Origin: Candidatus Sulfobium mesophilum
GTDB lineage: Bacteria > Nitrospirota > Thermodesulfovibrionia > Thermodesulfovibrionales > UBA6898
NCBI GenBank assembly: GCA_037916395.1
Contig: JBAIXS010000353.1
Location: 1 to 39,747, forward strand
Reading direction: 5' to 3'
DNA length: 39,747 nt
Under the pieces are notes generated by a model. It made no database searches. It was not told where the DNA came from and saw only the letters and a program-made list of their open reading frames with translations. The position numbers and the translations under genes were made by a program. Shown piece by piece: positions 3,542 to 25,997 of this stretch. Position 1 is the first letter of the stretch. Each line of letters starts with the position of its first letter.

Positions 3542-4099
3542 TTATCCGACTTTTTTCTTAATATCATTTAGAGAGGCCCTCAGACTGTCTCTAAGCACTG
3601 ATATTACGTCGGGCGCATTAATAGGAATATTTTCAAGATCAGCCCTTATCTCCCGGGTATCGAATGAAAAAGGGGGCTCGGCTTTCTCATAATCATAGGT
3701 AAAGGCCAAGTCTATCCCCGGGTTGCCCGCTATCAATACAGCCAGTGTTTCCGCGATATCGCCAATGGGCTTCATGTCTACGTGCATCGGCCTGAATTGG
3801 GCAGATACAATAGTGCCCGCTCCTGCCGCAGAGTTTATTGTGATATCGCCGCCGGTTTCCCTTGCCGACTGGGCAAGCAGCGAAAGACCGAGACCTACTT
3901 TTCTTGTTGTGCGGGACGTAAAGAAAGGGTCGAGCGCCTTTTCAACCAGGTCCTGCGCCATACCCTTCCCGTTGTCTGTTATCTCCACGATCAAACTGTT
4001 TTCATCCCTGCGATAAATCAGCTTTATCACAACGAGTGTCGCGCCGGCCGTGATAGAATTTTCAGCGATATCGAGTATATGCAGGGAGATATCTTCCAT
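3542..4099 (-). CDS. Stand-alone histidine-kinase-like ATPase (HATPase_c), of the type found in bifurcating hydrogenase operons
   Basis: N-box (DIAENS), G1 (DNGKG), F (DPFFT) and G2 (GLGL) boxes; no DHp or sensor domain. Confidence 0.85.
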   Translation of the reverse strand: MEDISLHILDIAENSITAGATLVVIKLIYRRDENSLIVEITDNGKGMAQDLVEKALDPFFTSRTTRKVGLGLSLLAQSARETGGDITINSAAGAGTIVSAQFRPMHVDMKPIGDIAETLAVLIAGNPGIDLAFTYDYEKAEPPFSFDTREIRADLENIPINAPDVISVLRDSLRASLNDIKKKVG

Positions 4100-4105
4100 G
4101 GCGCT

Positions 4106-4846
4106 TCAAAAAGCGACCTTTCTTCCGCCCTCGCCTCTAAATGCAAGGCGTAGTTCATCGAAGGTGGAATGGTTCATGAAGAGGCTTGTTGTCCTCCGGC
4201 CGATGTCCTCAATGCTATGCGCGTCCGAAGAGGAAATCCAGGGCAGATAGCGGTAAGCTCCGAATTTGATCCGCGCTTCTTCCGGGCTCGTCATCGACGA
4301 TACCTCAAGCGCGTCTAATTCAAGTTCCTTCGGAATAAATCCCAGACGGCCAATGATCCCGTATCCTTCACGGTCGATATGGCTTGCAACGGCGATGCCG
4401 TTAAACTCATGGATAAAATCGACTACCCCGTTTACGGATATATTCGTCGCCCCTATCAGGAGTCTTTTGTTGAACTCCAGAACCTCGTTGACCTCATTTA
4501 CCACCACCTGCATTCCGAAGGCGTCCTCATCGTTTTCACCCGGCTGCAAATTATCATAAATAACACTCTGCATTTTGAATGCGTCATCGAGCTCGCTGAA
4601 GAGGCCAAGGAGATGGACCTCCTCAGAGGAGTTTATCTCGATTCCGGCGACCACATATATGCCCTTCTTCCGGCCAAGCTCTCTGGTGACGGATACGTTT
4701 TCGGCTGAATTGTGGTCGCAGACAGCAATGATGTTTATTCCCAGTGAAGCGGCTTTTTCGACTATGTCCCGGGGCGTCATTGAAAGGTCCGCACAAGGAG
4801 AAAGGCAGGTATGTATGTGCAGGTCCGCGACGAATTCTACCGGCAT
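4106..4846 (-). CDS. PHP-domain metallophosphoesterase
   Basis: DLHIH, CDHN, GIE, HLL, SHID and SSDAH motifs of the PHP family. Confidence 0.9.
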   Translation of the reverse strand: MPVEFVADLHIHTCLSPCADLSMTPRDIVEKAASLGINIIAVCDHNSAENVSVTRELGRKKGIYVVAGIEINSSEEVHLLGLFSELDDAFKMQSVIYDNLQPGENDEDAFGMQVVVNEVNEVLEFNKRLLIGATNISVNGVVDFIHEFNGIAVASHIDREGYGIIGRLGFIPKELELDALEVSSMTSPEEARIKFGAYRYLPWISSSDAHSIEDIGRRTTSLFMNHSTFDELRLAFRGEGGRKVAF

Positions 4847-5178
4847 CTCAAGCCGAGCGCATAAAGCTTTCCAACCAGATCGAATGCCGTAAGGGAAGTC
4901 GTCATGATCGGGACGTTCTCAGCCGACGCCTTCTTAATCGTTTCTTCAGCAGGTATCCTCCCATTGACCAGGATGATGCCGCTGATGCCCTTCAGAGATG
5001 CCACTGCGACGATATTGAGATGGGATTGGAAGGTCACCCAAACAGAGCCCTCCCTAGCGTTGGCGATGACATCAGAGAGCATGTCACTGACGTAGCCGCT
5101 CGTAACCTCCCTAGTGAGATCAGTTTCTGCCGTCTTTAATTCAAGGGACATCTGTTCTATGAGATCAGAGAGTTTCAT
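4837..5178 (-). CDS. DRTGG-domain (HPr-kinase N-terminal-like) protein
   Basis: 113 aa, YVSDMLSDVIA...WVT...HLNIVAVA...IILVNG pattern; paralog of 5692-6048. Confidence 0.8.
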   Translation of the reverse strand: MKLSDLIEQMSLELKTAETDLTREVTSGYVSDMLSDVIANAREGSVWVTFQSHLNIVAVASLKGISGIILVNGRIPAEETIKKASAENVPIMTTSLTAFDLVGKLYALGLRCR

Positions 5179-5248
5179 AAATACCTCGCGGTTATTATTA
5201 AAGCCCTGTTTTTATTAACACGATCGGTTCCCATACAGCCCTTCTCAT

Positions 5249-5695
5249 TCAGGATGTCTGAGGAGGCGGCCCCTCAAGATAAATCACAAACTCAAGAGTC
5301 GTCCCCTCGCCGACTACTGAATTTACCGTCAGTTTGTCCGTATTTTTTTTTATGTTCGGCAGACCCATGCCCGAGCCAAACCCCATCTCCCTTATATAGT
5401 CGGGAGCCGTTGAGTATCCCTCCTTCATGGCAAGATCGATGTCAGGTATGCCCGGGCCCATGTCCTGCAGAGTCACCTTCACGGCCTCCGGCGTTATTGA
5501 ATAACTTAACATCCCGGCCACTGCATATATGATAGCATTCATCTCAGCCTCAAAAGCCGCAATGGAGGCCCTGCGGACGATGTCTGCAGGTATCCCCATA
5601 TTCTCAAGTATGCTCTTCAGATTGCTCGATGCAGAACCGGCGTTGGTGAAATCCTTTCCAGTAAGGAAAAAGACCCCATCGCTGCTGCCGGTCAT
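5249..5695 (-). CDS. RsbT/RsbW-like anti-sigma-type Ser/Thr protein kinase (HATPase_c_2)
   Basis: EAEMN, DMGPGIPDI, GYST, GMGLPNIK and NSVVGEGT closely parallel the RsbT motif pattern. Confidence 0.85.
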   Translation of the reverse strand: MTGSSDGVFFLTGKDFTNAGSASSNLKSILENMGIPADIVRRASIAAFEAEMNAIIYAVAGMLSYSITPEAVKVTLQDMGPGIPDIDLAMKEGYSTAPDYIREMGFGSGMGLPNIKKNTDKLTVNSVVGEGTTLEFVIYLEGPPPQTS

Positions 5696-6048
5696 GGCGT
5701 GTCTCCTGTCGCACTCCTCAGACCGTTTTCATACAGCCTGCCGCATGTCTCAAACATCGATAAATTCGTTACGAGCAGGGGAATATTTTTACTGTTCGCA
5801 GTCTCTATCGTATCGAGATCGGGTCTTTTACCCTGAACGAATACAATAGCTTTAATGTCTGCCACGTCGGCCGTTCTCACCACCTGAACGTTTGTCAGTC
5901 CTGTGATAAGCAGAGACTGAGTTACAGAGAAGGCGAGCACGTCGCTCATGAGGTCTGCGCAATATGCCCGCCCGATTTCCCTGTCCATGTCGGTTCTTTG
6001 GGTAATGACGATTGCCCCAAGTATGCCCCTGATTTCGCCTAAAGTCAT
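5692..6048 (-). CDS. DRTGG-domain protein
   Basis: CADLMSDVLA...LLITGLTNVQVVRTA...IVFVQGK; ATGA overlap with the downstream kinase gene. Confidence 0.82.
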   Translation of the reverse strand: MTLGEIRGILGAIVITQRTDMDREIGRAYCADLMSDVLAFSVTQSLLITGLTNVQVVRTADVADIKAIVFVQGKRPDLDTIETANSKNIPLLVTNLSMFETCGRLYENGLRSATGDTP

Positions 6049-6074: not shown

Positions 6075-8543
6075 TCAGCCCTTCGCGGGCTCGAGTTTAA
6101 CGGCATCCCTGAAGGGCGCCCCATCTTCAGCAGGATAGGTCAGGGCATTTACCCTGCCGTGAGGAAAATGCATGGATGTAAAGACGGAACCCCCTGGAAC
6201 CGTATCTGTAATCCTGACCTTAAGATATACGGCCCCACGCCTCGAAGATACCTTCACGTGGCTGTTATCAGTTAAACCATACTTGCCGGCCTCTTCTTCA
6301 TTGATCTCAAGGAATGCCTCGGAAACAACGAGATCAAGCGCCTTTGATCTTGTCGACATAGTGCCGGAATGCTGAAGCACATCCCTTGTCACAAGATGAA
6401 GCGGATATTCATCATCTGTGTCTTCCCCCGGGGCATAGGACACCGGCTGAAAGGTCTTTTTGCCGGCTGCTTCCGCTTGCTCCAGCGACTCATTATCTAT
6501 TCCGGCAGATACGTCATCGACGCTCCTGAACACTATTTCCTTGCCCATAGAAAGGGAGAGGTTGCGGAGTATCTGCCAGTCGGGCATTGACTGTCCCGAC
6601 GGTGAGACAATTTTTTGCAATTTCTGAGTTATCCCTTCGGCGTTGGTAAAGGTGCCTTCCTTTTCCGCCCAGCTTGATGCCGGAAGAACTACGTGGGCGA
6701 GCTTGGCAGTCTCAGTCATGGCAATATCCTGAACGACGACGAATTCAAGCGAATTCAAGGTGCCTATTATCTTCGAACTGTTGGGGAATGCAGAGACAGG
6801 GTCTTCGCCCATTATATAAAGAGCGCGCAGTGAACCAGGCTCGTAGAGCATATCGAAAATGTTCTTTCCCGCGGCAGTCCCTCCGCCAGGCCTTATCTTC
6901 ATTTTGAAAAGACCATAGGTATTTGCATATTCTGCAGGTATCTGAAGCGCATCCGTTTCTTCGCCGAGAAGGATGACCAGGTTCGCCGCTGCGGCAACTG
7001 TGTCGGCCCCCTTTGTGTTTTCCGTAAGACCGATGGTAAAGCAGATCATCCTGCTTTTAGCAGCTGCAAGCCTTTCAGCTGATGACACGAGTTCTTCCTG
7101 CGGGATGCCAGTGATTTTTGAGACGTTTTCCGGAGTATAGTCTGCAAGAACATTTTCAAGCTCGGAGAATCCCGGCATCTTTGATACGACCGCCCTGTCG
7201 AAGAGTTCCCTGTCAATGATTATCTTCATGAGGCCGTTCAGCAGGGCCACCGAGGTGCCCTGCGCCATCTTAAGATGAGAGGAACTGTGCCTGGTGAGCT
7301 TTGTCTCCCTGGAATCGGCCACCATAAGATAAGAACCTTCCCTTTTAGCCTGCAGGATGTTCAGCCCGTATACCGGATGAGTGACGCTGATATCGGACTC
7401 GATTATGAAGATCACCTCTTTGCCAAGCGGCGCCTTCATGCTGATAGGGTGTGCCTTCGCTCCCAGTGCGTTGTCGAGCACAGCCTGGACCCTCCCGTAT
7501 CCGAAGGCCGCCGAGGAGTCCATGTTGCCTGAGCCTACAACGCTCAGCATAAATTTCCTCAGCATAAAGTTGTCTTCGTTTGTGCAGCGGTGGGAGCCGA
7601 GCGCCCCGACGGAATTGCCGCCATAGGTTTTGATTATATGTGACAGGTTTTCGCTGACATATTTCAGGGCCTCATCCCAGGAAACGGAAACGAGCAGACC
7701 CTCCTTGCGGATCATCGGGGTCTTAATGCGGTTTTCGCTGTATATATAATCGAAGCCGAACCTGCCCCTGCCGCAGAGGTTCCCCTCGCTGCGCCCGGCG
7801 TCCTCTTTCGCCCGGGACCTGAGGATCTTACCTTCTCTTAGGCCAAGCGTCAGAGTGCAACCGCAGCCGCAAAAAGAACATACGGTGTCCTTTTCTTCAA
7901 GAAACCATGCACGGGCAAGGAATTTGACAGGTTTCGACAGAAGCGCCCCGGTAGGGCAGATATCTATACACTGGCCGCAGTAGTCGCATTCGAGTATCTC
8001 TCCGAAGGCAGGCTTTACGACCGTTGAAAACCCTCTTCCGATCAGGCCCAATGCTCCGCGGCCCTGGTGTTCAGAACAGATCCTAACACACTTGCCGCAG
8101 AGTATGCACCTGTTTGCGGTCAGTTCCACAAGAGGACCTCTTACGTCCGGAGGGGCAGCCTTGCGGTGACGTATGAAACGGCCTTCGGGCTTGCCGTACT
8201 CGTACGCTACATCCTGCAAGTCGCACTCCCCGGCCTTGTCGCAGATAGGACAGTCAAGCGGGTGATGGATGAGGAGAAGCTCAAGAACTGTCTGCCGCGC
8301 TTTTCGTAGTTTCGGCGTATCGGTTTTTATTACCATGCCCGGCGCCACAGGAGTAGAGCATGCGGCGAAAAGCCTCGGCTGTCCCTCTGCTTCAACAACG
8401 CAAAGCCTGCAGCCGCCGTATGGCCTTAGTCTCTTGTCGTAGCACATGTTGGGTATCCTTATGCCGTTTTGCTGCGCGGCCTTGAGGATTGTCGTGCCGT
8501 CTTCGACCGACATCTTCTTATCGTTTATCGTCAGTTCTATCAT
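6075..8543 (-). CDS. NuoG/FdhA-like multi-Fe-S subunit (second copy), molybdopterin-oxidoreductase fold without the Mo/W ligand
   Basis: [2Fe-2S] (C..GGCRLC..AC), HxxxCxxCxxxxxC, two CxxCxxCxxxC motifs and CSFCGCGC..C. At the Fdh ARx(C/U)H site it reads DSSAAFGY. No H-cluster motifs. Confidence 0.9.
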   Translation of the reverse strand: MIELTINDKKMSVEDGTTILKAAQQNGIRIPNMCYDKRLRPYGGCRLCVVEAEGQPRLFAACSTPVAPGMVIKTDTPKLRKARQTVLELLLIHHPLDCPICDKAGECDLQDVAYEYGKPEGRFIRHRKAAPPDVRGPLVELTANRCILCGKCVRICSEHQGRGALGLIGRGFSTVVKPAFGEILECDYCGQCIDICPTGALLSKPVKFLARAWFLEEKDTVCSFCGCGCTLTLGLREGKILRSRAKEDAGRSEGNLCGRGRFGFDYIYSENRIKTPMIRKEGLLVSVSWDEALKYVSENLSHIIKTYGGNSVGALGSHRCTNEDNFMLRKFMLSVVGSGNMDSSAAFGYGRVQAVLDNALGAKAHPISMKAPLGKEVIFIIESDISVTHPVYGLNILQAKREGSYLMVADSRETKLTRHSSSHLKMAQGTSVALLNGLMKIIIDRELFDRAVVSKMPGFSELENVLADYTPENVSKITGIPQEELVSSAERLAAAKSRMICFTIGLTENTKGADTVAAAANLVILLGEETDALQIPAEYANTYGLFKMKIRPGGGTAAGKNIFDMLYEPGSLRALYIMGEDPVSAFPNSSKIIGTLNSLEFVVVQDIAMTETAKLAHVVLPASSWAEKEGTFTNAEGITQKLQKIVSPSGQSMPDWQILRNLSLSMGKEIVFRSVDDVSAGIDNESLEQAEAAGKKTFQPVSYAPGEDTDDEYPLHLVTRDVLQHSGTMSTRSKALDLVVSEAFLEINEEEAGKYGLTDNSHVKVSSRRGAVYLKVRITDTVPGGSVFTSMHFPHGRVNALTYPAEDGAPFRDAVKLEPAKG

Positions 8544-10411
8544 TATTTGTCCTCCTTCTTCGTTTCTGCTTCCGCAGCTGTTGCAACGAGTTCGGAAGGA
8601 TCTCCTTCGAATCCGGCGGGCAGGATCTTTATAGACTTGAATTTGCAGGCTTCATAGCAGGTCCTGCAGTGAACGCAGACTTCCTGTATGATCTTGTGAG
8701 GCTGTTTCTTTTCTCCGATTATCGCTTTCGAAGGACAAGCCCTCAGACAGGCGCCGCAGCCTTTACAAAGTTTTTCGTCTATCCAGAAGGTGACTAGGTT
8801 GCGGCAGACGCCTGCCTTGCACCATTTGTCCTTTATGTGTGATTCATATTCATCCCTGAAATATTTTATTGTTGTTAGCACCGGGTTAGGGGCGGTCTGT
8901 CCGAGCCCGCAAAGAGAGGTGGCTATAATGTCCCTGCCCAAGTCCAGAAGTGTTTCGACATCGCCCTCTTTTCCTTTTCCTTCTGTGATATCGGTGAGCA
9001 TGTCTAGGAGTATCTTTGTGCCGACCCTGCAGGGAGTGCACTTGCCGCATGATTCATCGGCCGTAAATTCGAGGAAGAATTTTGCAGTGCCGACCATGCA
9101 GGTGTTGTCGTCCATGACAACCATTCCGCCTGATCCGACAATAGCGCCTGTTGCTACGATGTCTTCGTAAGTTACAGGCGTGTTTAGAAGGTGTTCGGGG
9201 ATGCAGCCGCCTGATGGACCGCCAAGCTGGACGGCCTTGAACTTTCTCCCTTTCCTTATGCCACCCCCTATATCGTATATTATTGTCTTAAGCGGAATTC
9301 CCATAGGGACCTCGACGAGCCCGACGTTGTTTACTGCGCCTGTCAGGGCAAACACCTTGGTGCCCGCGCTTTTTTCCGTGCCGAGGCTTCTGTACCATTC
9401 AGAGCCCTGAAGTATGATGGGCGCGATCTGCGCCAGTGTCTCGACGTTGTTAAGCACGGACGGTTTGTCCCAAAGACCTTTGTGAGCAGGGAAGGGCGGT
9501 CTGGGTCTCGGCATGCCGCGTCTGCCTTCGAGAGACCGCATCAGCGCTGTCTCTTCGCCGCAGACAAAAGCCCCGGCGCCCAAATATATTTCGAGATGGA
9601 AGTCAAAACCGGTATCAAGGATGTTATCGCCGAGAAGCCCGGCCTCGGTTGCCTGGTCTATAGCCAATTGAAGACGCTTGACCGCAAGTGGGTATTCCGC
9701 CCTCACATATATATACCCGTGATGAGCGCCGATGGCCTTGGCGCCTATGATCATCCCCTCGATTACAGAGTGCGGGTCTGCCTCCATTACGGATCTGTCC
9801 ATAAAGGCGCCCGGGTCGCCCTCGTCGCCGTTACAAAGCATGTACTTGATGTCCGATTTGACCTTTGAGGCAAATTCCCATTTGAGCCCGGTGGGGAAAC
9901 CGGCTCCTCCTCTTCCTCTTAACCCCGAGTCTTTCACGACCTTCACAATCTCTTCGGAGGTCATCTGGGTCAGAGCCCTGGCGACAGCCTGATAACCGTC
10001 CCTGGCTATATATTCTTCGATCTTCTCAGGATCGATCAATCCTTTGTTCCTTAATACCCTGAGGACCTGATGCTTGAAAAACGGAATGTCTTTCATTCTT
10101 GGAATCGCGGCCTTTTTCTCAGGCTCCTTAAACATCAGTTTCTGATAGGGCCTGCCCTTAAGGAAATGTTCTTCTACCAGCATAGGAATATCATCTACAG
10201 TTACTTTCTGGTAAAAGACTTCGTCCGGATATACCGCCATAACGGGCCCTTCGGCGCAATATCCGTTGCAGCCGGTAAGAACGAGTCTGATCTCTTCAGC
10301 GAGTCCCTTACTCTTCAGTTCCTCCTGGAGAGCCTCTTTGACAGCGGCGGTGCCGCCGGCCACACAACCCGTTCCTGCGCATAACATTACGTTTGCACGA
10401 ACCTTATCCAT
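8543..10411 (-). CDS. HydB/NuoF-like NAD(H)/FMN-binding subunit, electron-bifurcating type
   Basis: N-terminal thioredoxin-like Fe-S domain (CAGTGC..CNGYC), GRGGAGF, DEGDPGAFMDR, GAGAFVCGEE, GGPSGG, ESCGKCTPC..LCGLG, HxxxxxCxxxxC, and C-terminal 2x[4Fe-4S] (CKGCGACLRACP, CVHCRTCYEAC). Confidence 0.93.
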   Translation of the reverse strand: MDKVRANVMLCAGTGCVAGGTAAVKEALQEELKSKGLAEEIRLVLTGCNGYCAEGPVMAVYPDEVFYQKVTVDDIPMLVEEHFLKGRPYQKLMFKEPEKKAAIPRMKDIPFFKHQVLRVLRNKGLIDPEKIEEYIARDGYQAVARALTQMTSEEIVKVVKDSGLRGRGGAGFPTGLKWEFASKVKSDIKYMLCNGDEGDPGAFMDRSVMEADPHSVIEGMIIGAKAIGAHHGYIYVRAEYPLAVKRLQLAIDQATEAGLLGDNILDTGFDFHLEIYLGAGAFVCGEETALMRSLEGRRGMPRPRPPFPAHKGLWDKPSVLNNVETLAQIAPIILQGSEWYRSLGTEKSAGTKVFALTGAVNNVGLVEVPMGIPLKTIIYDIGGGIRKGRKFKAVQLGGPSGGCIPEHLLNTPVTYEDIVATGAIVGSGGMVVMDDNTCMVGTAKFFLEFTADESCGKCTPCRVGTKILLDMLTDITEGKGKEGDVETLLDLGRDIIATSLCGLGQTAPNPVLTTIKYFRDEYESHIKDKWCKAGVCRNLVTFWIDEKLCKGCGACLRACPSKAIIGEKKQPHKIIQEVCVHCRTCYEACKFKSIKILPAGFEGDPSELVATAAEAETKKEDK

Positions 10412-10539: not shown

Positions 10540-10923
10540 TTAATATGTTGATTCGCATCCCGCTACCAGCGCATATTTTTCTACCGGCTTTCCGCCGATG
10601 ATATGTTCCCTGAAAATCTCCCTGATCTTTTCGTCGGTAAGATCACAGTATTTTACCGGCGGGTGGTCCATTACCTCCACAGTGGCAAGTGGTTCCCTGG
10701 CGCAGAGACCCGCGCAACCAGAGGTTGTCACAATGACATCTGTAACGTTAGCCTTCGTGATTTCGTCCATAAGTGCAGTCATCACGGCTCTCGCCCCAGC
10801 GGCTATTCCGCAGGTGCCCATATGCACGGTTACCTTGGCCCTGTATCCGCCCTCACGAAGGGTGAAATCAGAACGATGCCTTTCCTTGATTTTCTTAAGG
10901 TCATCTATGGTCAATCTCGGCAT
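10540..10923 (-). CDS. Thioredoxin-like ferredoxin subunit (HydD/HndB-like)
   Basis: VHMGTCGIAAGA...SGCAGLCAREP...EHIIGG. Start reassigned from 10959 to ATG at 10923 (AGGAGG RBS, 1 nt after the upstream stop). Confidence 0.88.
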   Translation of the reverse strand: MPRLTIDDLKKIKERHRSDFTLREGGYRAKVTVHMGTCGIAAGARAVMTALMDEITKANVTDVIVTTSGCAGLCAREPLATVEVMDHPPVKYCDLTDEKIREIFREHIIGGKPVEKYALVAGCESTY

Positions 10924-10924
10924 A

Positions 10925-11851
10925 TTAGGCCTCCTTTTCGGCCATCTCTTCCGCCACATCGGCGGAAGGGGCCTCTAAAATAGTGGGGTCGAACTGACTT
11001 ATTTTTTCGAGTGCCTTTTTCGGGGTCATTGCCCCGTAAGTCTCCTGGTCTATGACCATTACGGGGGCCAAGCCGCAGGCGCCTAAGCACCTGACCGCCT
11101 CCACAGAGAACTTTCTGTTTTCGGTAGTTTCTCCGACATCTATCTTCAGCGTATCCTGTATCTTCTTTAAAACGCCCTCAATGCCCTTTACATAGCAGGC
11201 GGTTCCCAGACAGACCCTGATGTTATGATCCCCTCTTGGCTTCATAGTGAAAAAAGAGTAGAAAGACACAACACTATGCACCTCTGCCTCTGGCTTGTTA
11301 AGCCCTTTTGCAATTCTTTTTTGCACGACGGGAGGCAGATATCCGACAATTTCCTGAGCACGCTGCAGGACCGGTATCAGTGCCCCCGGTTTCTTCTTTA
11401 AATCGGCGATGACCCTGTCGAGTTCCGCGGCCATGGCAGGCGGGAATTCTTCGGTTTTTTTCGCCTCCTCCGGTTTTCTGCCTCTCGTCCATTCAACCGC
11501 TCTCTCTGTAACATCAAGCAGTACGGAAGGCGTAAACGGTTTTGGCACATAGTCTATGATGCCAAGCTCCAGCGCATCCTTAATGGTGTCCTGTGAAGGA
11601 TAGCCTGTAATGATGACGATTCCGATTGCAGGCTTCATCTTCTTTATCCACCTGATGAGGGTGATGCCGTCGACCTCCGGCATCTTAAGGTCCGTAAAGA
11701 CGAGGTCATAATTTTCCTGACCTATTTTCATGATCGCTTCTCTTCCCCCAAGCGCCCCTTCAACACTGTACCCCTCGCCCTTGAGCACCCTCTCGGCGCT
11801 CTTGATGACAACAAGCTCGTCATCGACAATCAATATTTTGGGTTCAGCCAT
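10925..11851 (-). CDS. Response-regulator receiver fused to NuoE/HydC [2Fe-2S] subunit
   Basis: Residues ~1-120 form a REC domain (DD, TDLKMP phospho-Asp, TG, KPF). The C-terminal half is NuoE-like (LIPVLQRAQ, SFYSFF, CLGTAC, CLGACGLAP). Confidence 0.92.
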   Translation of the reverse strand: MAEPKILIVDDELVVIKSAERVLKGEGYSVEGALGGREAIMKIGQENYDLVFTDLKMPEVDGITLIRWIKKMKPAIGIVIITGYPSQDTIKDALELGIIDYVPKPFTPSVLLDVTERAVEWTRGRKPEEAKKTEEFPPAMAAELDRVIADLKKKPGALIPVLQRAQEIVGYLPPVVQKRIAKGLNKPEAEVHSVVSFYSFFTMKPRGDHNIRVCLGTACYVKGIEGVLKKIQDTLKIDVGETTENRKFSVEAVRCLGACGLAPVMVIDQETYGAMTPKKALEKISQFDPTILEAPSADVAEEMAEKEA

Positions 11852-11882: not shown

Positions 11883-12650
11883 TTAAATTTTAAGGACCTC
11901 GACGCGCGCAAGCCAGAGCAGCCATCCCTCGCAGAGATTGTCCCTCACCAGGGCGCTCATTGCCGCGTTTGCCTGGTGGTTTAGTTCGAGCACCTTGCCC
12001 GTCATCGGCGAAATCAGCTCCTCTGTCTGTCCGCCCCCGGAGAGTATCTTTCCAAAGGGTTCGCCGGCGGCGACCATCTTGAGGCTCTCCGGCAAGTCTA
12101 TATACATCAATTGTCCGCTCAGAAGCCAGTATCTAACATCGCAGCCAATCTCCCAAAGCCCGTTCTTGGCAGGTCTGGCCCATGTCCCCTCTTTATAAAA
12201 GATGACCGGGTTTTCAGTGTCTCTGAGGGAGACGATATCGTTGCGGAACTCGTCTATAAAAGCCTTCCTGAGGATCCAGCCCTTGTTGTCGAAGACCTTT
12301 TTTGCAACGTTCATCATGAAATCTGGTGTAAAAGGTTTTTCTATAAATTCGAATGCCCCGAGTTTTACCGATTCCTTTGCGTCTTCAAGGGTGGGATAGC
12401 CGGTAATAATCACCACGTCAAGCTTGGGCTGGACGACCTTCGCCTCCCTAAGCACTGTGATGCCATTTATGTCCGGCAGGCGGATGTCAGATATAAGCAG
12501 ATCAAACTCTTCATTGGATATCTTCTTGATGGCCTCTTCACCTTTATCGGCCGTTATTATGTTATACCCTTCGGCACCGAGAATCCTTTTGCAACTCAGC
12601 GTTACGACAGGGTCGTCATCAAGTACCAATATCTTCCCTTTGTTTTCCAT
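11883..12650 (-). CDS. Response-regulator receiver fused to a glycine-cleavage-H (GcvH)-like domain lacking the lipoyl lysine
   Basis: REC domain (DDD, SDIRLP, TG, KPF), then TWAR..IG...IDLP...GEPFG..LISPMTGKVLELN...EGWL, matching the GcvH pattern; ESVK is replaced by LSGG. Confidence 0.82.
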   Translation of the reverse strand: MENKGKILVLDDDPVVTLSCKRILGAEGYNIITADKGEEAIKKISNEEFDLLISDIRLPDINGITVLREAKVVQPKLDVVIITGYPTLEDAKESVKLGAFEFIEKPFTPDFMMNVAKKVFDNKGWILRKAFIDEFRNDIVSLRDTENPVIFYKEGTWARPAKNGLWEIGCDVRYWLLSGQLMYIDLPESLKMVAAGEPFGKILSGGGQTEELISPMTGKVLELNHQANAAMSALVRDNLCEGWLLWLARVEVLKI

Positions 12651-12684: not shown

Positions 12685-12700
12685 AGCAATAAGGATACCA
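12685..12700 (-). promoter_or_regulatory. Sigma54 (-24/-12) promoter for the REC-GcvH...HATPase operon
   Basis: Minus strand TGGTATCCTTATTGCT, an exact GG-N10-GC close to consensus TGGCAC-N5-TTGCW, about 35 nt upstream of the 12650 ATG and directly downstream of a sigma54 activator gene. Confidence 0.85.
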
Positions 12701-12887: not shown

Positions 12888-14285
12888 CTATTCTGCCTCG
12901 GTAGTCTTTGTGGATATACGATATTTCTTCATCAGCGAATGGAAGTTTGTCCTCTGCATGCCGACATCCGTAGAGGCCCTGGAGATGTTCCAGTCATTGC
13001 GCCTGAGAGCCTCCATTATAAAGGCCTTTTCAACTCCCTCGACTGACTTGATTCTCAAATCTTTCTTTATTTCTTTAAGCTCTTCGGAGTTCCGCGGGAT
13101 TGCCTCTTCAGAGGGAAATTCCAGCGACGTAAGATGTTCAGGTTTGAGCGTCTTGTCCTGGCACATAATCACCGCCCGCTGAATTGTGTTTTCCAGTTGC
13201 CGGACATTTCCGGGCCAGGGATAAAGGACAAGCAGTCTCATGGCTTCGGCGTTTATGTGGGTAACCCGCTTGTTGAGGTCCGCGCTGTATTTCGCTAAAA
13301 AGTGCTGGGCCAGATGGGGTATATCCTCTTTCCTGTCTCTCAGGGGAGGTGTATGAATCGGGAAGATATTCAGTCTGTAAAAGAGATCTTCCCTGAATGA
13401 CCCCTCTTTTGTCATTACCCTCAGATCCTTATTGGTCGCGGCAATAAATCTCACATCGATATGGACGGTCCTTTTTTCTCCGACCGGACGGAATTCGCGC
13501 TCCTGCAGAATCCGTAGCAATTTTGCCTGGGTTGAAATATTAAGATTGCCGATTTCATCAAGGAAAATTGTGCCGCCGTTTGCCATTTCCAGAAGCCCCT
13601 TTTTAGTTTCAGATGCGCCGGTAAAGGCTCCTTTGACATGTCCGAACAGCTCCGATTCGATAAGGGTCTCAGGTATGGTAGTGCAGTCGACAACCACAAA
13701 AGGCAGGTCTTTCCTTGGACTGTTGTAATGAATCGCTCTGGCGATAAGTTCTTTGCCCGTGCCGCTCTCTCCGGTGATAAGTACGGTGCTTCCGGTGCCG
13801 GCGACCCTCGCGATAAGTTGAAATACCTTCTGCATAGCCTGGGATACGCCGACCATATTGCCCAGTTCATAATGGGAAGGGATTATCTCTCTGCCGGTAA
13901 TTTCCCCGGATGAAGGCTTTTGTCTTTTTAGCGCACGGTCAACCAGGGCGAGAAGGTCATCGGGGCTGAACGGTTTTTCTATATAATCGAATACACCCAT
14001 CTTCATGGCCTTTACAGCGGTTTTTACAGTCCCGTATCCGGTCATGATTATTACCTCGGTATCGGACCATTTCTCTTTGATTTTTATGAGCACTTCGATG
14101 CCGTTTATATCGGGCATCTTCAAATCGGTGAGCACCAGATCGACGGCGCCTGTCTCGAGGGCCTGCAGGCCCTCGCCGCCGGATATTGCAGTTCGAACTT
14201 CATAGCCTGCGGGTTCAAGCACCCTGCGGCAGCTTTCCCTTATTATCTCTTCATCATCTATAACGAGTATTCTGCCCTTGTTCAT
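12888..14285 (-). CDS. Sigma54-dependent response regulator (REC-AAA+-Fis HTH)
   Basis: REC domain, GESGTGKE Walker A, GAFTGA, FLDEIG, FREDLFYRL, WPGNVRQL, C-terminal HTH. Confidence 0.96.
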   Translation of the reverse strand: MNKGRILVIDDEEIIRESCRRVLEPAGYEVRTAISGGEGLQALETGAVDLVLTDLKMPDINGIEVLIKIKEKWSDTEVIIMTGYGTVKTAVKAMKMGVFDYIEKPFSPDDLLALVDRALKRQKPSSGEITGREIIPSHYELGNMVGVSQAMQKVFQLIARVAGTGSTVLITGESGTGKELIARAIHYNSPRKDLPFVVVDCTTIPETLIESELFGHVKGAFTGASETKKGLLEMANGGTIFLDEIGNLNISTQAKLLRILQEREFRPVGEKRTVHIDVRFIAATNKDLRVMTKEGSFREDLFYRLNIFPIHTPPLRDRKEDIPHLAQHFLAKYSADLNKRVTHINAEAMRLLVLYPWPGNVRQLENTIQRAVIMCQDKTLKPEHLTSLEFPSEEAIPRNSEELKEIKKDLRIKSVEGVEKAFIMEALRRNDWNISRASTDVGMQRTNFHSLMKKYRISTKTTEAE

Positions 14286-14311: not shown

Positions 14312-14689
14312 TTATGACTTGTTCTTATGGTCCAGTGCCTTGGAAACTGCGTTTATAAGGGCGTCAGGAGTAAAAGGTTTTTCGATGTAGTCGAAAGCCC
14401 CGAGTTTTATGGATTTCACCGCTGTGTCGACGGTCTGGTAGCCCGTTATTATGATGACCTCAACCTCCGGCCAGTCCTGCTTGATCTTTCTTAGCACCTC
14501 AATGCCGTCCATATCAGGCATTTTAAGGTCGGTGAGCACAATGTCGACCTTGTCTTCACCCATAATCTTTAGACCTTCCTGGCCGTTTTGCGCCAGCCTA
14601 ACCTCGTAGCCGCTCGGCGTGAGGGTGCGGCTACAACTGGTTCTGACGATGTCCTCATCGTCAATTACGAGGATTATTCCTTTATTCAT
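14312..14689 (-). CDS. Single-domain response regulator
   Basis: 125 aa REC-only protein with intact DD, D, T and K; ATGA overlap with the kinase gene. Confidence 0.93.
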   Translation of the reverse strand: MNKGIILVIDDEDIVRTSCSRTLTPSGYEVRLAQNGQEGLKIMGEDKVDIVLTDLKMPDMDGIEVLRKIKQDWPEVEVIIITGYQTVDTAVKSIKLGAFDYIEKPFTPDALINAVSKALDHKNKS

Positions 14690-16269
14690 GGCATTTCCTT
14701 GTAGGCGGGTAATTTGATAAAGAAGCTCGTCCCTTCGCCCAGTTTGGTTTTCACGGAGATGCTTCCTCCGTGCTCTTGTATAATACCGTGACTTACAGCG
14801 AGTCCCAGCCCGGTGCCCTTACCGACCGGCTTCGTCGTAAAGAAAGGTTCGAAAATCTTTGCGAGATTGCCGTTGTCTATTCCGGGCCCTGTGTCCCTGA
14901 ATTCGATTTCGACCCAGTCGCCGCTGTTGTCCCTGATATTTCTTGTGGTTATCGTGATAGCGCCCTTGCCTTCAAGCGCATCTGCAGCATTCATGGTCAT
15001 ATTGAGAAATACCTGCTGCAGCTGAGAAGAATCGGCCTTCACCTTCGAGAGAAAATCGTCGAAATTCGTGACTATTTTTATATTAAAGAAATCGGCCTTG
15101 TTCTTAACGATATTAAGCGAATGGTCAATGACGTCGTTGATATTTACCGGCATTTTTTCGGCTGCCGAAGCCCTTGCAAAACCAAGGAGCCCCTTTATAA
15201 TAGTGGAGCACCTGTTCGCCTGCTCTATAATCACCTGTATGTCCTCGTTCTCCTCCGACCCCTCCGGGAACTTCTTTAATAACAGGTGCCCGAACGTGAC
15301 GATTCCGGTAAGGGGGCTGTTAATCTCATGAGCGACGCCTGCGGCCATCCTGCCGAGTGATGCCAATTTTTCGGAATGGATGAGCTGCGCCTGGGCCCGA
15401 TGTATTGCCTCTGTTTTTTCCTGCACCTTTTTTTCGAGTGTATTGCCCCACTCCACAAGTTCATTTTTGGCTTTTTTCAGATCTGAGGTCATGGCATTAA
15501 AGGCCTGGGCAAGTTCGCCTATTTCGTCTTTAGTATTGATGTCCAGATGATAGTCCAGGTCCCCGCCTGCAACCTTTTCCATGCCCCTTGTCAGCAGAGT
15601 TACCGGTGTGGACACCAGGTTCCAAAGAATAGTGCAGAGCACGACCGATATTACGAACAGAAAAACAAGCACGTAAATGGTTATGGCCAATCCCTGGTTT
15701 TTTACGCTCTTGTCCAGCGGGGCAAGGGAGAGGTTGGCCTCGACCAGTCCCAGCACTTTTTGTTGCTTCGGGTGCGCATGACAGGTGGAAGTATAGCAGG
15801 CGACTTCGTTATATATCGGCTGCACTATGTTGAGCACCCTGAAGTCTCTGTTGTCCTTACTTATCAAAACTGTCGGCGTGTCTTTTGGGTGCGTCCCCTC
15901 GGCAGAATGGCAGCCTACGCAGACCGGTGCTTTCTTATCAACCACCGTCCCGATGTCTTTTTTTTCAGACGAATAGGCTATCTTTCCCCTGCTGTCGAAA
16001 ATACGGACGCGAAGAACGCCTTCGGCGGAGCCGATAGCTTCAATCGTCTGCTGAATGAGAAGCTGCTGGAAGGTCAGCATCCCGTAGCGATTACTTTTTA
16101 TCACGTACTCAACGAAGGAATGTCCATACTTGACTGAATTTTGTATCAGTTCTGTTTCCTGATGACGAAACAGAAAATACCAGAAGATGGAACTGCCCAC
16201 AACCATCAGCGTGCCTATGGTGAGGATAAGCTTGCCGGTCAGTGAATGCAGAGATTTTTTTACGAGCAT
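14686..16269 (-). CDS. Membrane HAMP sensor histidine kinase with periplasmic c-type heme motifs
   Basis: TM - periplasmic domain with CVGCH (15907-15921) and CYTSTCHAH (CX4CH, 15778-15798) - TM - HAMP (DEIGELA) - HisKA (AHEINSPL) - HATPase. Confidence 0.93.
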   Translation of the reverse strand: MLVKKSLHSLTGKLILTIGTLMVVGSSIFWYFLFRHQETELIQNSVKYGHSFVEYVIKSNRYGMLTFQQLLIQQTIEAIGSAEGVLRVRIFDSRGKIAYSSEKKDIGTVVDKKAPVCVGCHSAEGTHPKDTPTVLISKDNRDFRVLNIVQPIYNEVACYTSTCHAHPKQQKVLGLVEANLSLAPLDKSVKNQGLAITIYVLVFLFVISVVLCTILWNLVSTPVTLLTRGMEKVAGGDLDYHLDINTKDEIGELAQAFNAMTSDLKKAKNELVEWGNTLEKKVQEKTEAIHRAQAQLIHSEKLASLGRMAAGVAHEINSPLTGIVTFGHLLLKKFPEGSEENEDIQVIIEQANRCSTIIKGLLGFARASAAEKMPVNINDVIDHSLNIVKNKADFFNIKIVTNFDDFLSKVKADSSQLQQVFLNMTMNAADALEGKGAITITTRNIRDNSGDWVEIEFRDTGPGIDNGNLAKIFEPFFTTKPVGKGTGLGLAVSHGIIQEHGGSISVKTKLGEGTSFFIKLPAYKEMP

Positions 16270-16343: not shown

Positions 16344-16372
16344 TTGACAACCGCGATTGTTTTCCTTATAAC
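16344..16372 (+). promoter_or_regulatory. Sigma70 promoter of the nuo operon
   Basis: TTGACA-N17-TATAAC with an AT-rich UP-like region; a second TATAAT at 16374-16379. Confidence 0.8.
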
Positions 16373-16403: not shown

Positions 16404-16775
16404 ATGCCCGGTTCTTTTATGCCGTCAGATTATTTACCGGTCCTGATATTTTTAATAATCGCAACCGCTTTCGGCCTTGGAGCTCTGTTGCTCGGCGAAC
16501 TTTTCAGAATAAGAAGGCCCTATCCCGAAAAACTCATGCCGTATGAATCGGGAAATCCGCCTGTAGGGGAACCGCGCATGAGGTTCTCGGTCAAGTTTTA
16601 TATTGTCGCGATGTTGTTTGTGGTGTTCGATGTTGAAGCGATCTTTCTTTATCCTTGGGCGGTCGTCTTCGACAAAATAGGTATTTATGCATTTATCGAG
16701 ATGATTATTTTTATTGTAATTCTCCTGGTCGGTTATATATATGCCTGGAAGAAGGAGGCTTTCATTTGGGATTGA
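16404..16775 (+). CDS. nuoA: NADH-quinone oxidoreductase subunit A
   Basis: PYESG, FVVFDVE, FIEM, three TMs. Start uncertain (in-frame ATGs at 16383, 16404, 16419); the track start at 16242 lies upstream of the promoter. Confidence 0.93.
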
Positions 16776-17293
16776 TCACCACGATAGAGACGGCTGCCCT
16801 TATAGAGGTCGAAGAAGGAACAAAAATCATGTCTCCGAATATTATCGTTACATCCCTGGATAAAATTATTAACTGGGGCAGACGATCATCGCTATGGCCT
16901 ATGACGTTCGGTCTTGCCTGTTGCGCCATAGAAATGATGGCCACCTATGCCAGTCATAATGACCTTGACAGGATGGGGATAATTCCAAGAGGATCTCCCA
17001 GACAGTCAGATTTTATGTTCATTGCCGGGACGGTGACAAAGAAGATGTCCCAGGTTGTAAGGAGGGTCTACGACCAGATGCCCGAGCCCAGATACGTCAT
17101 CTCGGTTGGAAGCTGCGCCGACAGCGGTGGCATCTTCAATACTTACAGCACTGTGCAGGGCTGCGACAGCTTTTTGCCGGTGGATGTGTATATCCCAGGT
17201 TGCCCCCCCAGACCTGAGGCCTTTATCGACGGGATAATCAAGCTTCAGGAAAAGATCAAGGCGGAACAATTCCACTGGAGCCGCTGGCGGTAA
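16766..17293 (+). CDS. nuoB: NADH-quinone oxidoreductase subunit B
   Basis: [23 protein letters not shown] (N2 cluster). Start reassigned to TTG at 16766 (AAGGAGG RBS, overlaps nuoA stop). Confidence 0.95.
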
Positions 17294-17390
17294 GATTATC
17301 AGAAAGGTTTGCCCGGAGAGAGTTACTAAATAGTTGGCAGCACATCGCCTGGTCTCAAACTTTAATTGAGGAGTGCGAACTCAGGATGTT

Positions 17391-17924
17391 ATGGAAGCAT
17401 TACTGATTGCCGAAAAATTAAAAGAAAGATTTCCTGAAGAGGTCCTTGATATAAAGGAATTCAGGGGGCAGGTATCAGTTACCCTGAAAAAGGAAAAGAT
17501 AATCGACATCTTAAGGTTCCTCCATGATGATCCCGATCTTTTTTTCGATTACCTGGTCGATGTCTGCGGCGCAGATTACCTGGGGAAAAAAGAAAAGAGG
17601 TTCGAGGTAGTTTACCATCTATACTCAATCAAGCACCGTCATGCCCTGCGGATAAAGGCAGAGGTGGCCGGAGACAATCCATCCATAGATTCAGTTGTGG
17701 CTATTTGGGCGGGCGCAAACTGGCATGAACGGGAAGCCTATGATATGTTCGGAATAGTTTTTAGCGGGCACCCCGACCTAAGGAGAATACTTTTGCCTGA
17801 GGACTGGGAGGGATATCCACTGAGGAAAGATTACCCTTTGCAAGGACCCGAAAAGGAGTGGCCTGGCTTTCTGGATGTCCTTGACAGAGCAAAGAAATAC
17901 AGGGAATTTGAGTGGCACGGATGA
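17391..17924 (+). CDS. nuoC: NADH-quinone oxidoreductase subunit C
   Basis: [34 protein letters not shown]; separate from NuoD. Confidence 0.95.
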
Positions 17925-19159
17925 GCGCCGATGAATATAAGACTGGGGATCCAAGCCTGATGGAACAGACAGAACCCCAAGAAAATACTTTCGAGACCAA
18001 AGAGCTTACCATAAGCATGGGCCCTCAGCATCCTGCGACCCACGGTGTTTTAAGGCTTGTGCTGGATCTCGACGGTGAAAATGTAGTCAAGTGTACCCCT
18101 TATGTAGGTTACCTCCACAGGGGTGTTGAAAAACTGGGGGAAAACAGGACATATTTTGCTGCACTCCCCTTGAGCGACCGGCTTGATTACATCTCTTCCA
18201 TGAACAACAACGTTGGCTACGTGAACGCAGTTGAAAAGCTCTTTGGCATCGAAGCGCCTGAAAGGGCCAAGTTCATTAGAACGATGGTAGCCGAGATGGG
18301 CAGGATATCCAGCCATATTATATGGCTGGGGACCCATGTTCTCGACATCGGGGCCACTACCCCCTTTCTGCACGCTATGGCCCAGAGGGAACGTCTCCTG
18401 GACCTGTTTGAGATGCTGTGCGGCGCGAGGCTTACTGTCAGCTATCCCCGGGTTGGCGGCGTGCGCAATGATATTTCGCAGGAGTTTCTCGATGCCCTTT
18501 ATGAATTTGTACTTGAGTTCCCTGCAAATATGGACAACTATGAGACCCTGGTTACTGAAAACAGGATTTGGAAGGACAGGACGGTAGGCATCGGCGTTAT
18601 CTCTGCCCAAGAGGCAATAAACTGGGGTCTGACGGGAGGTACTCTAAGGGGCTCCGGAGTTGATTACGACATAAGGAAATATGCTCCTTATGATGCCTAT
18701 GACAAAGTCGAATTTGACGTGCCGGTGGGCAAGGCAGGCGACTGTTATGACAGATATATAGTCAGAGTAGGCGAGATGAGACAGGCCAACAGAATTATTA
18801 AACAATGCATAGAAAAACTTCCAGCAGGACCTGTTATGGCCGAATCTCCCAAATTGACCCTGCCCCCCAAGGACATGATCCTTAAAGACATGGAACATCT
18901 TATACACCAGTTTATCCTTATCACGAAAGGGCCGTCTATCGCCGAAGGCGAAGTATACGTTGCCACTGAAGTGCCGAAAGGCGAACTGGGCTTTTATTTT
19001 GTGAGCGACGGGACTGGAAAGCCTTACAGAATGAGGGTGAGGGCCCCGTCATTCGTTCATGCCTCTGTGCTTCCGAGGTTGTGCAAGGGAGGGCTCATCG
19101 CAGACGTTATCGCAAATATAGGGACAATAGATATTGTCCTTGGAGAGTGTGACAGGTAA
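17921..19159 (+). CDS. nuoD: NADH-quinone oxidoreductase subunit D
   Basis: [35 protein letters not shown]; ATGA overlap with nuoC. Confidence 0.97.
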
Positions 19160-19164
19160 TCAGG

Positions 19165-19629
19165 ATGTTTAGCGAAGCTGCAAAAAAAGAACTGCAGGAA
19201 ATAAGGCTTAGATACCCCAATGCCAGAGCGGCACTTTTGCCTGCTCTTTATGTTGCGCAGCGGGAGTACGGGTGGTTGTCTCCAGACGCCTATGAGGCGG
19301 TGTCGGATCTGCTTGGCGTGCCGCAGGCGATTGCGCGCGGGGTAGGGTCTTTTTACGCCATGTACAAGCATAAACCGGCCGGCAGGAATATCATACAGCT
19401 TTGCACAAATGTTTCCTGCATGATACTTGGAGCGGAAAGACTCGTTGATTTCCTTAAGAACAAGTACGGCCTCGAACCCGGAGGCACAACCATGGACGAA
19501 AGGTTCTCACTTGTAATCATGGAATGCATCGGCGCCTGCGGTACGGCGCCTGCAATGCTGATTAATGATGATTTTTATGAGAACCTGACCGAAAAATACA
19601 TAGAGGAAATTCTTCAAAGATATAAATAG
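19165..19629 (+). CDS. nuoE: NADH-quinone oxidoreductase subunit E
   Basis: CTNVSC and CIGAC [2Fe-2S] motifs. Confidence 0.96.
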   Translation: MFSEAAKKELQEIRLRYPNARAALLPALYVAQREYGWLSPDAYEAVSDLLGVPQAIARGVGSFYAMYKHKPAGRNIIQLCTNVSCMILGAERLVDFLKNKYGLEPGGTTMDERFSLVIMECIGACGTAPAMLINDDFYENLTEKYIEEILQRYK

Positions 19630-19634
19630 GCGAT

Positions 19635-20897
19635 ATGGAAAAAATACTGCTTAAGAACATCGAGAACCCAAACTCTGCCGATATCAGTGAGTACATCAAA
19701 ACAGGCGGCTATGCAAGCCTGCCCAAGGCGCTCGGCATGGCGCCAAAGGAAGTAACTGAAGAAGTCAAAAAGGCAGGCCTCAGGGGCCGGGGCGGCGCAG
19801 GGTTTCCCGTTGCAATGAAATGGACCTTCGCCTCTGCGGACCCTAAATTCCCCAAATACCTGCTTTGTAATGCAGATGAAGGCGAACCCGGGACATTTAA
19901 AGACAGGCCGATACTTGAGAAAAACCCCCATCTTCTGATTGAAGGGATGGCAATTTCAGGATATGCGCTGAGCGCAGAATATGGCTACATCTACCTAAGA
20001 GGCGAATACCCTGCTGCAAAGCATATATTGGAAAAGGCGATCAGTCAGGCTTACGAAAAAGGTTTCCTCGGAGACAATATTGCAGGCAAAGGCGTGAAAT
20101 TCCACCTTGCGGTGCATCAAGGGGCCGGGGCTTATATATGCGGTGAGGAAACGGCATTAATTGAGTCGCTTGAGGGCGATAAGGGACAGCCGAGGATAAA
20201 GCCGCCTTTCCCCGTGAATGTCGGCGTATTTGCAAAACCTACAGTGGTTAATAATGTCGAGACCCTCTCAAACCTTCCATATCTTATCGGGGTGGGCGGA
20301 GAGGCATATGCCAAGATAGGAAACCCCGAATGTCCCGGACCCAAGATATATTGTGTCTCCGGCCATGTGGAAAAACCAGGGGTGTATGAGCTGCCTATGG
20401 GGACCGTCCTGAGGGATATTATTTATACGCATTGCGGAGGTATCAAGGGGGGCAGGAAATTAAAGGCTGTAATCCCCGGCGGTATTTCAACACCTGTGCT
20501 TCCGCCCGACAAGATAGACTGTCCCATGGATTTCGTCAGCATGCCGAAGCACGGCAGTATGCTTGGCTCCGGCGCAGTGATCGCCATGGACGAAACAGTA
20601 TGCCTGGTAAAGGTCTGCTACAGAGCCCTCAGATTTTTCGAGCACGAGTCCTGCGGTAAATGTACTCCCTGCCGTGAAGGGACCGGGTGGCTGCGGAAAA
20701 TTCTGGGGAGGATAGAGAGCGGAGGAGGTATGGAAGGCGATATTGATCTTCTGTTGTCAATATCCGGGAATATGCTGGGCAAGACTTTTTGTCCTTTGGG
20801 AGACGGGGCGGCCTCAGTCGTGCAGAACTTCATAAAACACTTCAGGCCGGAATTCGAGGACCATATTAGGAGCAAGGCCTGCACAATAGCAGGTTAA
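19635..20897 (+). CDS. nuoF: NADH-quinone oxidoreductase subunit F
   Basis: GRGGAGF, DEGEPGTFKDR, GAGAYICGEE, ESCGKCTPC..FC; canonical 420 aa with no extra ferredoxin domains. Confidence 0.97.
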   Translation: MEKILLKNIENPNSADISEYIKTGGYASLPKALGMAPKEVTEEVKKAGLRGRGGAGFPVAMKWTFASADPKFPKYLLCNADEGEPGTFKDRPILEKNPHLLIEGMAISGYALSAEYGYIYLRGEYPAAKHILEKAISQAYEKGFLGDNIAGKGVKFHLAVHQGAGAYICGEETALIESLEGDKGQPRIKPPFPVNVGVFAKPTVVNNVETLSNLPYLIGVGGEAYAKIGNPECPGPKIYCVSGHVEKPGVYELPMGTVLRDIIYTHCGGIKGGRKLKAVIPGGISTPVLPPDKIDCPMDFVSMPKHGSMLGSGAVIAMDETVCLVKVCYRALRFFEHESCGKCTPCREGTGWLRKILGRIESGGGMEGDIDLLLSISGNMLGKTFCPLGDGAASVVQNFIKHFRPEFEDHIRSKACTIAG

Positions 20898-20907
20898 CGG
20901 ACAACCG

Positions 20908-25099: not shown

Positions 25100-25102
25100 A
25101 AA

Positions 25103-25615: not shown

Positions 25616-25618
25616 GAA

Positions 25619-25921: not shown

Positions 25922-25997
25922 TGAAAGCCGCTGGAACCCAGCCACCTTCAATCGTAAGCAGGGGAGGAGTGCTGCCGCCCTTTAAGAGAGGAAAAAT

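Follow-up and report, generated by a model that had tools for sequence, protein, structure and literature searches.

We analysed a stretch of 39,747 nucleotides from Candidatus Sulfobium mesophilum (contig JBAIXS010000353.1; "the window" means this whole stretch), in which a four-subunit Bfu module is encoded beside a complete complex I (nuo) operon. Judged from the sequences of the module and its relatives, it is probably an alternative head for complex I, of bifurcating type and probably phosphorylation-controlled, which would replace NuoEFG and represent a variant of the predicted Nuo-Bfu enzyme. Because the module holds the nuoEFG slot in relatives, the two NADH modules of the window are probably not independent neighbours but alternative heads of the same enzyme. 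The initial annotation had placed an ordinary and a bifurcation-competent module side by side; both are present, but their coexistence as such is ordinary. The genes at issue are as follows.

6075-8543, minus strand: BfuA, 822 amino acids (aa), NuoG/FdhA fold, ligand sets for five Fe-S clusters, NuoG-type R211-x-W213
8543-10411, minus strand: BfuB, HydB-type FMN/NADH subunit, 622 aa, ligands for B1, B2/Zn, B3, B4 and B5 plus AFM/F/GGPSG
10540-10959, minus strand: BfuD/HndB-like small thioredoxin-like Fe-S subunit (PF01257 at E 0.0019, below cut-off)
10925-11851, minus strand: receiver domain (REC) fused to BfuC/HydC (domain search, alignment)
16404-30914, plus strand: complete nuoA-N operon, divergent from the Bfu cluster
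19165-23490, plus strand: canonical head, nuoE 19165-19629, nuoF 19635-20897 (TFK/Tyr/GGIST), nuoG 20908-23490

BfuB and its NuoF paralogs

The motifs, N-terminal Fe-S domain, metal site and C-terminal 2x[4Fe-4S] domain that the initial annotation ascribed to BfuB were all located in the 622-aa open reading frame (ORF) on the minus strand. A motif scan placed GDPGAFMDR at residue 198, GAGAFVCGEE at 278 and GGPSG at 397, and domain search together with Cys positions (11/16/48/52) revealed an N-terminal thioredoxin-like [2Fe-2S] domain, cluster B5. The B1 ligands are C455/458/461/501, the B2/Zn metal site is C438...H525-x5-C531-x4-C536, and eight Cys within residues 549-589 form the C-terminal 2x[4Fe-4S] domain. 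The Pfam domains (Complex1_51K, SLBB, NADH_4Fe-4S and Fer4) are the domain set of the Bfu family; the B2/Zn ligands, the B5 cluster and a BfuC with cluster C1 in the operon are likewise present, and membership of the module in this family is very likely on sequence grounds. The identity of the B2 site, [2Fe-2S] cluster or Zn, is contested (PMC9499530). The AFM/Phe/GGPSG signature, set against TFK/Tyr, had been taken as a bifurcation hallmark, in agreement with published contrasts (Losey et al., 2020, PMC7311640; Schut et al., 2022, PMC9304861). BfuB has the features that Losey et al. (2020) give for bifurcating beta subunits (Ala/Glu-x-Met at the NADH site, Phe at the FMN site, GGPSG), and its bifurcation competence is a sound prediction.

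In an alignment of the window sequence with 30 ORFs from other loci, A202, F203, M204, F282, GGPSG, C438, H525, C531 and C536 were invariant (31/31), so the motif set is not due to chance. The top match in the PDB was A. mobile HydB (7t2r_B, E 2.9e-251), with identical numbering of the metal site. Residue 476 is Thr, the most frequent variant there (Schut et al., 2022, PMC9304861). Cys11 and Cys16 of B5 are kept in 26 of the 31 sequences, and the other five carry His/Gly at these positions. Five loci (L051, L052, L053, L057 and L058) are without a separate bfuD, and the two observations together suggest that a BfuD-type N-terminus was swapped in for the B5 domain. Six long-branch orthologs (L071, L072, L077, L074, L076 and L099; family f3 plus one named contig) depart from the AFM and GGPSG patterns and carry GAGTFICGEE but keep the B2 ligands and B3/B4; possibly their nucleotide specificity has changed. 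A second BfuB copy with intact motifs stands beside the altered one in G242 and G269. The BfuB of G009 (L060:11789-14923, 1044 aa) has, by eye, a long GltD/NfnB-like domain in the place of B3/B4, and a similar type is known from Hydrogenedentota (PMC11406978).

The complex I NuoF (19635-20897, plus strand) reads GEPGTFKDR, GAGAYICGEE and GGIST and is without both extra Fe-S domains of BfuB, exactly as first described. The opposite motif signatures of the two paralogs therefore stand, but the count does not, since the genome encodes five homologs, three BfuB and two short NuoF. Besides the window copy, one BfuB lies with a selenocysteine (Sec) formate dehydrogenase (C184) and one follows genes for carbon monoxide dehydrogenase (CODH) and acetyl-CoA synthase (C286); the short NuoFs sit in two nuo operons, on C353 and C39. 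The C286 cluster (L219), directly after the acetyl-CoA synthase/CODH genes, has an extra 199-aa NADH_4Fe-4S plus Fer4 subunit between BfuB and BfuA. The full metal site was rightly assigned to BfuB, but part of it also occurs in NuoF: the plain window NuoF retains three of the ligands (C323, H410 and C416), with Glu361 at the fourth position. Such retention was found in 29/33 NuoFs of the class and 33/43 other short NuoFs (62/76 aligned), so the His alone is not diagnostic; by sequence, the last metal-site Cys and the B3/B4 and B5 domains are. The three-ligand site with Glu361 is frequent in short NuoFs of anaerobes and Acidobacteria and is a possible vestigial metal site. Coexistence of BfuB and NuoF in one genome is commonplace. 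Table S2 of PMC5812927 has two 'nuoF' rows with zero peptides, and the genus paper, in the passages found, names complex I, Rnf and Nfn without referring to the Bfu module.

Position in relatives and docking on complex I

Docking of the module on complex I, considered apart from bifurcation and control, is predicted with fairly good confidence, from gene order, phylogeny and the features of BfuA. In the 100% complete genome G222, the order is nuoABCD-HK-REC-[REC-BfuC]-BfuD-BfuB-BfuA-DRTGG/HATPase/PHP cassette-nuoHIJKLMN (HK, histidine kinase), and the module, with BfuB 88% and BfuA 69% identical to those of the window, fills the nuoEFG slot between nuoD and nuoH. No short NuoF was found in G222: each of its three NuoF-like matches belongs to a frame of 596 aa or more. 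The positional feature of Nuo-Bfu, bfuABC inside nuo in place of nuoEFG, is thus seen in this ortholog and not in the window genome. Other arrangements were also detected: the module and nuoEFG together inside one nuo operon (G173), the module upstream of, and in opposite orientation to, a nuo operon without EFG (G284, G291 and G304), and a headless nuo operon with the module elsewhere in the genome (G158, G266, G181, G211 and G308). In G090 and G028 (L188 and L190) it is the canonical nuoEFG that is detached from a headless nuo operon, followed by REC-GcvH; since nuoEFG is also found apart, each of the two heads behaves like a movable unit. In some headless nuo operons a zinc-ribbon/TPR gene stands where nuoEFG would be (L171:13684-14427; also L173 and L175). 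The distant relatives used here are a sample among the matches listed.

The phylogeny that the initial annotation had called for groups the window BfuB with AFM/F/GGPSG BfuB sequences and not with NuoF. In the IQ-TREE analysis (42 of 175 core BfuB sequences), L104/L106 form the sister group (100/96) of the window clade (100/99), and the FastTree analysis of the full set gave the same join at 98. L104 and L106, a deltaproteobacterial Nuo-Bfu pair outside the class, have BfuCDBA between nuoD and nuoH. With regard to a possible placement in BfuB clade 38 or 39 of Schut et al. (2022), what the tree shows is this sisterhood to nuo-embedded modules.

BfuA has the composition expected of Nuo-Bfu, a full Fe-S set without a catalytic domain. 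The ligands for five clusters are complete in 27/27 aligned sequences. It reads DSSAAFGY where formate dehydrogenase (Fdh) has DHCARL-Sec-H, without the Mo-ligand Cys/Sec-His, and the Mo ligand is found in 0/74 of the BfuA clade versus 18/18 Sec-Fdh. No H-cluster was found in BfuA, which has a molybdopterin fold, and three H-cluster patterns detected no [FeFe] motif anywhere in the genome; the module therefore has no third-substrate site of its own. When BfuA residues 89-270, which we take to be equivalent to the segment facing the Q module in solved complex I, were searched, 31 complex I G/75-kDa PDB entries ranked above any other enzyme. The same segment of true NuoG gave 33 complex I entries first, and that of the genome's formate dehydrogenase, as a control, six Fdh/Hyd/Nfn/Stn entries first. 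R211-x-W213 follows association with nuo, being present in 72/74 of the BfuA clade, 72/74 G subunits of nuo operons and 2/2 Fdh inside nuo operons, but in only 5/16 other Sec-Fdh. The BfuA structure model has low confidence in the Fe-S region (residues 117-213 under 50), and Foldseek ranks Fdh first, a ranking that rests chiefly on the C-terminal domain because the Fe-S region is modelled poorly. In L145 and L152, the place of nuoG, beside or within a nuo operon, is taken by a Sec formate dehydrogenase subunit with the NuoG-type R-x-W; it is a candidate formate-fed head of complex I.

Distribution was counted in 111 genomes of the class that are at least 90% complete. BfuA occurs in 77 of them, canonical NuoF in 78 and NuoD in 104; both heads are found in 67, BfuA alone in 10, NuoF alone in 11 and neither in 23. 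Since the genomes are related and strict thresholds were applied, no statistic was drawn from these head counts. In 22/77 BfuA carriers (counted by eye), BfuA shares a contig with NuoD at a distance of up to 25 kb.

Several results weigh against a complex I head. The nuo operon of the window genome has its own head, with nuoEFG intact and the Bfu module divergent from it, and the remaining 55/77 carriers are without demonstrable nuo proximity. Neither head was detected, at the thresholds used, in the 23 genomes above. Family f10 has NuoD in 10/10 genomes and BfuA and NuoF each in 0/10, with a headless operon seen in G033; because headless nuo operons also exist without either head, a headless operon plus a Bfu module is no proof of pairing. 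G200 and G124 carry BfuA, and no NuoH or NuoM ortholog was found there, although assembly gaps are likely in G124 because its nuoF lies on a 5-kb contig and its congeners have nuo. As for BfuA, the PDB ranking of its segment is inflated by near-identical mitochondrial entries, and the sister pair L104/L106 is without W213 in the alignment. Full-length BfuA is nearest to Fdh, with 19 Fdh-shared versus 7 NuoG-shared columns. It is neither sister to the NuoG of the class nor a duplicate of it, and the A-subunit FastTree, with long-branch warnings, left its deep placement unsettled. In four soil metatranscriptomes (shares 0.06-0.08), short contigs, some of them near-identical, covered bfu and nuo genes; with low depth, no strand information and no silent-stretch control, these were not counted as evidence.

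Regulatory genes, mechanism and rival explanations

The minus strand carries, in order, the kinase, a receiver, a sigma-54 activator, a sigma-54-type site, REC-GcvH, REC-BfuC, BfuD, BfuB, BfuA and an accessory cassette. The genes not listed above are as follows.

14686-16269, minus strand: membrane sensor histidine kinase (HAMP, HisKA, HATPase)
14312-14689, minus strand: stand-alone receiver protein
12888-14285, minus strand: NtrC-type sigma-54 activator (REC, AAA+ with GAFTGA, Fis helix-turn-helix)
12686-12700, minus strand: sigma-54-type -24/-12 site TGGTATCCTTATTGC, 36 bp upstream of REC-GcvH
11883-12650, minus strand: receiver domain fused to a GcvH-like domain, lipoyl lysine missing at what we take to be its place in the GcvH motif
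3542-6048, minus strand: accessory cassette of DRTGG 5692-6048, anti-sigma-type HATPase 5249-5695, DRTGG 4837-5178, PHP 4106-4846 and HATPase 3542-4099

The receiver fused to BfuC retains all its catalytic residues (D10, D11, D54, T82 and K104) in 31/31 sequences, and the [2Fe-2S] ligands of cluster C1 in BfuC (C214/219/255/259) are likewise invariant in 31/31. The fusion was found in 71/73 loci, both misses beginning at a contig end, and in 39/251 genomes of the phylum, all within one class. A single-chain model folds it as two separate domains (pLDDT 77, pTM 0.47; the confidence scores for local structure and overall fold), and automatic annotation names the C subunit HndA. The likely start of BfuD is 10923, giving 127 aa as in most relatives. 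In L081, L208 and L209 (G257, G311 and G300) a tandem duplication BfuB-BfuA-BfuB-BfuA follows one REC-BfuC and one BfuD.

The periplasmic domain of the kinase has CVGCH (117) and CYTSTCH (158), i.e. CxxCH and Cx3-4CH, each in 34/35 orthologs, and the kinase is a putative c-type heme sensor. Its sensor domain matches the chemoreceptor sensor family PF21563 at E 0.0018, below cut-off. As a lead only, heme-c Cache sensors are reportedly enriched in Nitrospirota (bioRxiv 10.64898/2026.02.01.703092). A strict sigma-54-type match lies upstream of 22/57 REC-GcvH orthologs; in the window the pattern is not enriched (7 matches versus 5.2 expected), and the single site is within chance. By eye, a sigma-70-like site (TTGACA-17 bp-TATAAC, 16344-16372, plus strand) precedes nuoA, while the bfu genes have the sigma-54-like one. 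The same DRTGG/HATPase/PHP set flanks the deltaproteobacterial Nuo-Bfu (L104 and L106).

In the mechanism that we propose, NADH would bind FMN in BfuB, ferredoxin would dock at B3/B4, and both electron streams would merge as proposed for Bfu enzymes, BfuBC coupling NADH and ferredoxin as the characterised ones do. BfuA would hand the merged electrons to NuoI/NuoD and then menaquinone, with proton pumping, which could open complex I to low-potential ferredoxin produced by CODH or pyruvate oxidation. According to the argument of Schut et al. (2022, PMC9304861), such coupling adds driving force where the quinone has a low potential. In the weakest step, the choice between the heads would be made by phosphorylation, with the heme-c-type kinase acting on the sigma-54 activator (expression) as well as on the BfuC receiver (assembly or activity). 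The kinase probably controls both transcription and protein through these two targets; for direct phospho-control of BfuC through its receiver, a guess from conservation, we see an even chance. A wider scheme appears doubtful, in which Thermodesulfovibrionia have one complex I with two swappable heads, a heme-sensing kinase installs or activates the bifurcating one by phosphorylating the BfuC receiver, and the enzyme is reversible (confurcation to menaquinone, or bifurcation of menaquinol electrons that forms NADH and reduced ferredoxin for the Wood-Ljungdahl pathway at the expense of proton motive force). Four protons per two electrons at 150-180 mV would supply 0.30-0.36 V. From the potentials in Table 1 of Schut et al. 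(2022, PMC9304861; menaquinone -74 mV, NADH -280 mV, ferredoxin -500 mV), the mean of NADH and ferredoxin is -390 mV and the gap to menaquinone about 0.32 V.

It is unlikely that the module is instead a soluble Bfu core that docks on a different catalytic partner with genes elsewhere, be it a NiFe HydSL pair (as in A. mobile), a formate dehydrogenase or some heterodisulfide-type enzyme, and that nuo closeness reflects co-regulation. The closest solved relative of BfuB is indeed the HydB of a NiFe enzyme, that of A. mobile, whose HydA likewise has no catalytic site and is encoded in an operon with hisK and hydD (PMC8880783), and contig C33 encodes an orphan group-3 NiFe pair with a large subunit nearest A. 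mobile HydL (7t2r_D, E 2e-65). However, this pair occurs in 3/111 genomes versus 77/111 for BfuA, the other two from a family with BfuA in 0/4, and on this distribution it was rejected as a general partner. Six group-3 loci in five carriers resemble, by ORF sizes and N-termini, four-gene sulfhydrogenase or Mvh/HdrA clusters with their own partners, and no catalytic gene lies beside the module in the loci read. The Fe-S segment of BfuA matches A. mobile HydA (1e-18) far more weakly than complex I (3e-39). HydSL co-occurring with BfuABC, the feature of NiFe-Bfu, was not seen, none being encoded in the cluster. The orphan pair itself (L216:7382-9533, G000 C33) lies among glycogen and aldolase genes with no adjoining diaphorase or HdrA.

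A module that docks on complex I as an ordinary or loosely coupled NADH input, or a ferredoxin-only one, without true bifurcation, is distinctly unlikely. The motifs are correlative and derived from hydrogenase beta subunits, electron flow from NADH to menaquinone is downhill and needs no coupling, and the six altered family-f3 orthologs show that the clade can drift; Nuo-Bfu is known only as a prediction (PMC9304861), no characterised case having been found in the literature search. Yet the five B clusters, C1 and the three motifs are without exception kept and strongly conserved, and beside NuoEFG it would be redundant to maintain another plain NADH head that has three additional clusters.

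Least probable among the functional alternatives, we hold it very unlikely that the module serves mainly as a redox sensor or signalling hub passing the NADH/ferredoxin state to a phosphorelay via the BfuC receiver, with little catalytic flux. Four receiver domains, a kinase and a sigma-54 activator surround it, REC-GcvH also follows the detached nuoEFG in G090 and G028, and BfuA has no catalytic site; but a receiver domain is normally the input of signalling rather than its output, the G222 module is the sole head found for its complex I, and the Fe-S wire of BfuA is complete in 27/27. Identity as an [FeFe] hydrogenase (HydABC/Hnd) or a formate dehydrogenase (Fdh-Bfu type 1) was rejected, the former because BfuA has no H-cluster and the three patterns found none in the genome, the latter by the Mo/W ligand count of 0/74.

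Comparison with known systems

If the module is an alternative complex I head as proposed, a single cell would naturally pair a bifurcating with a non-bifurcating head on one proton pump, so that the two could be compared. Sulfate-reducing Nitrospirota would have an electron route from ferredoxin into or out of complex I, two-component control would act directly on an energy-coupling enzyme, and a head swap would let the complex I of an anaerobe use NADH and ferredoxin together. What would be novel relative to the predicted Nuo-Bfu is the separate second head and the receiver fusion, two paralogs with different motifs being ordinary; no dual-head complex I or receiver-NuoE/HydC fusion was found in the literature searched, which covered few subscription journals.

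Nuo-Bfu is a predicted 14-subunit bifurcating complex I with BfuB in clades 38/39 (Schut et al., 2022, PMC9304861), and proteins of the window type may already be in that tree because clade 39 includes Nitrospirae. The window module shares with it the BfuABC core with all clusters, the catalytically blind, Type 3-like BfuA, the nuo association and the predicted route from NADH plus ferredoxin to menaquinone. Whereas Nuo-Bfu has BfuABC inside nuo in place of NuoEFG, the window genome keeps NuoEFG and encodes the Bfu head separately. The window cluster adds BfuD, the receiver on BfuC, REC-GcvH, the heme-motif kinase and the sigma-54 activator, which the passages available on Nuo-Bfu do not mention.

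The A. mobile NiFe-HydABCSL enzyme (7T2R; PMC8880783) is similar in the B-subunit ligand numbering (C438, H525, C531 and C536), the non-catalytic A subunit and the hisK in the operon. The window differs from it in having no HydSL in the cluster, Thr for Cys at 476, the receiver fusion, and a BfuA Fe-S segment that resembles complex I G and not A. mobile HydA. The C-D-B-A order and the BfuB motifs recall the [FeFe] HydABC(D) of T. maritima, A. woodii and T. kivui and the HndABCD of D. fructosovorans, unlike which the module has no H-cluster.

Mycobacteria are known to have a receiver-type protein, the orphan response regulator Rv3143/MSMEG_2064 (PMC9274095), whose effect on complex I is exerted at the protein level. 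Rv3143 is a free protein of an aerobe that binds NuoD, whereas the window receiver is fused to the C subunit and has a kinase in its cluster. For the 11-subunit headless complex I of D. hafniense (PMC11238625), one Q/P engine with differing electron-input partners has likewise been proposed; its donors are unknown, whereas the window encodes two complete NuoEFG-like heads, one of them of bifurcating type.

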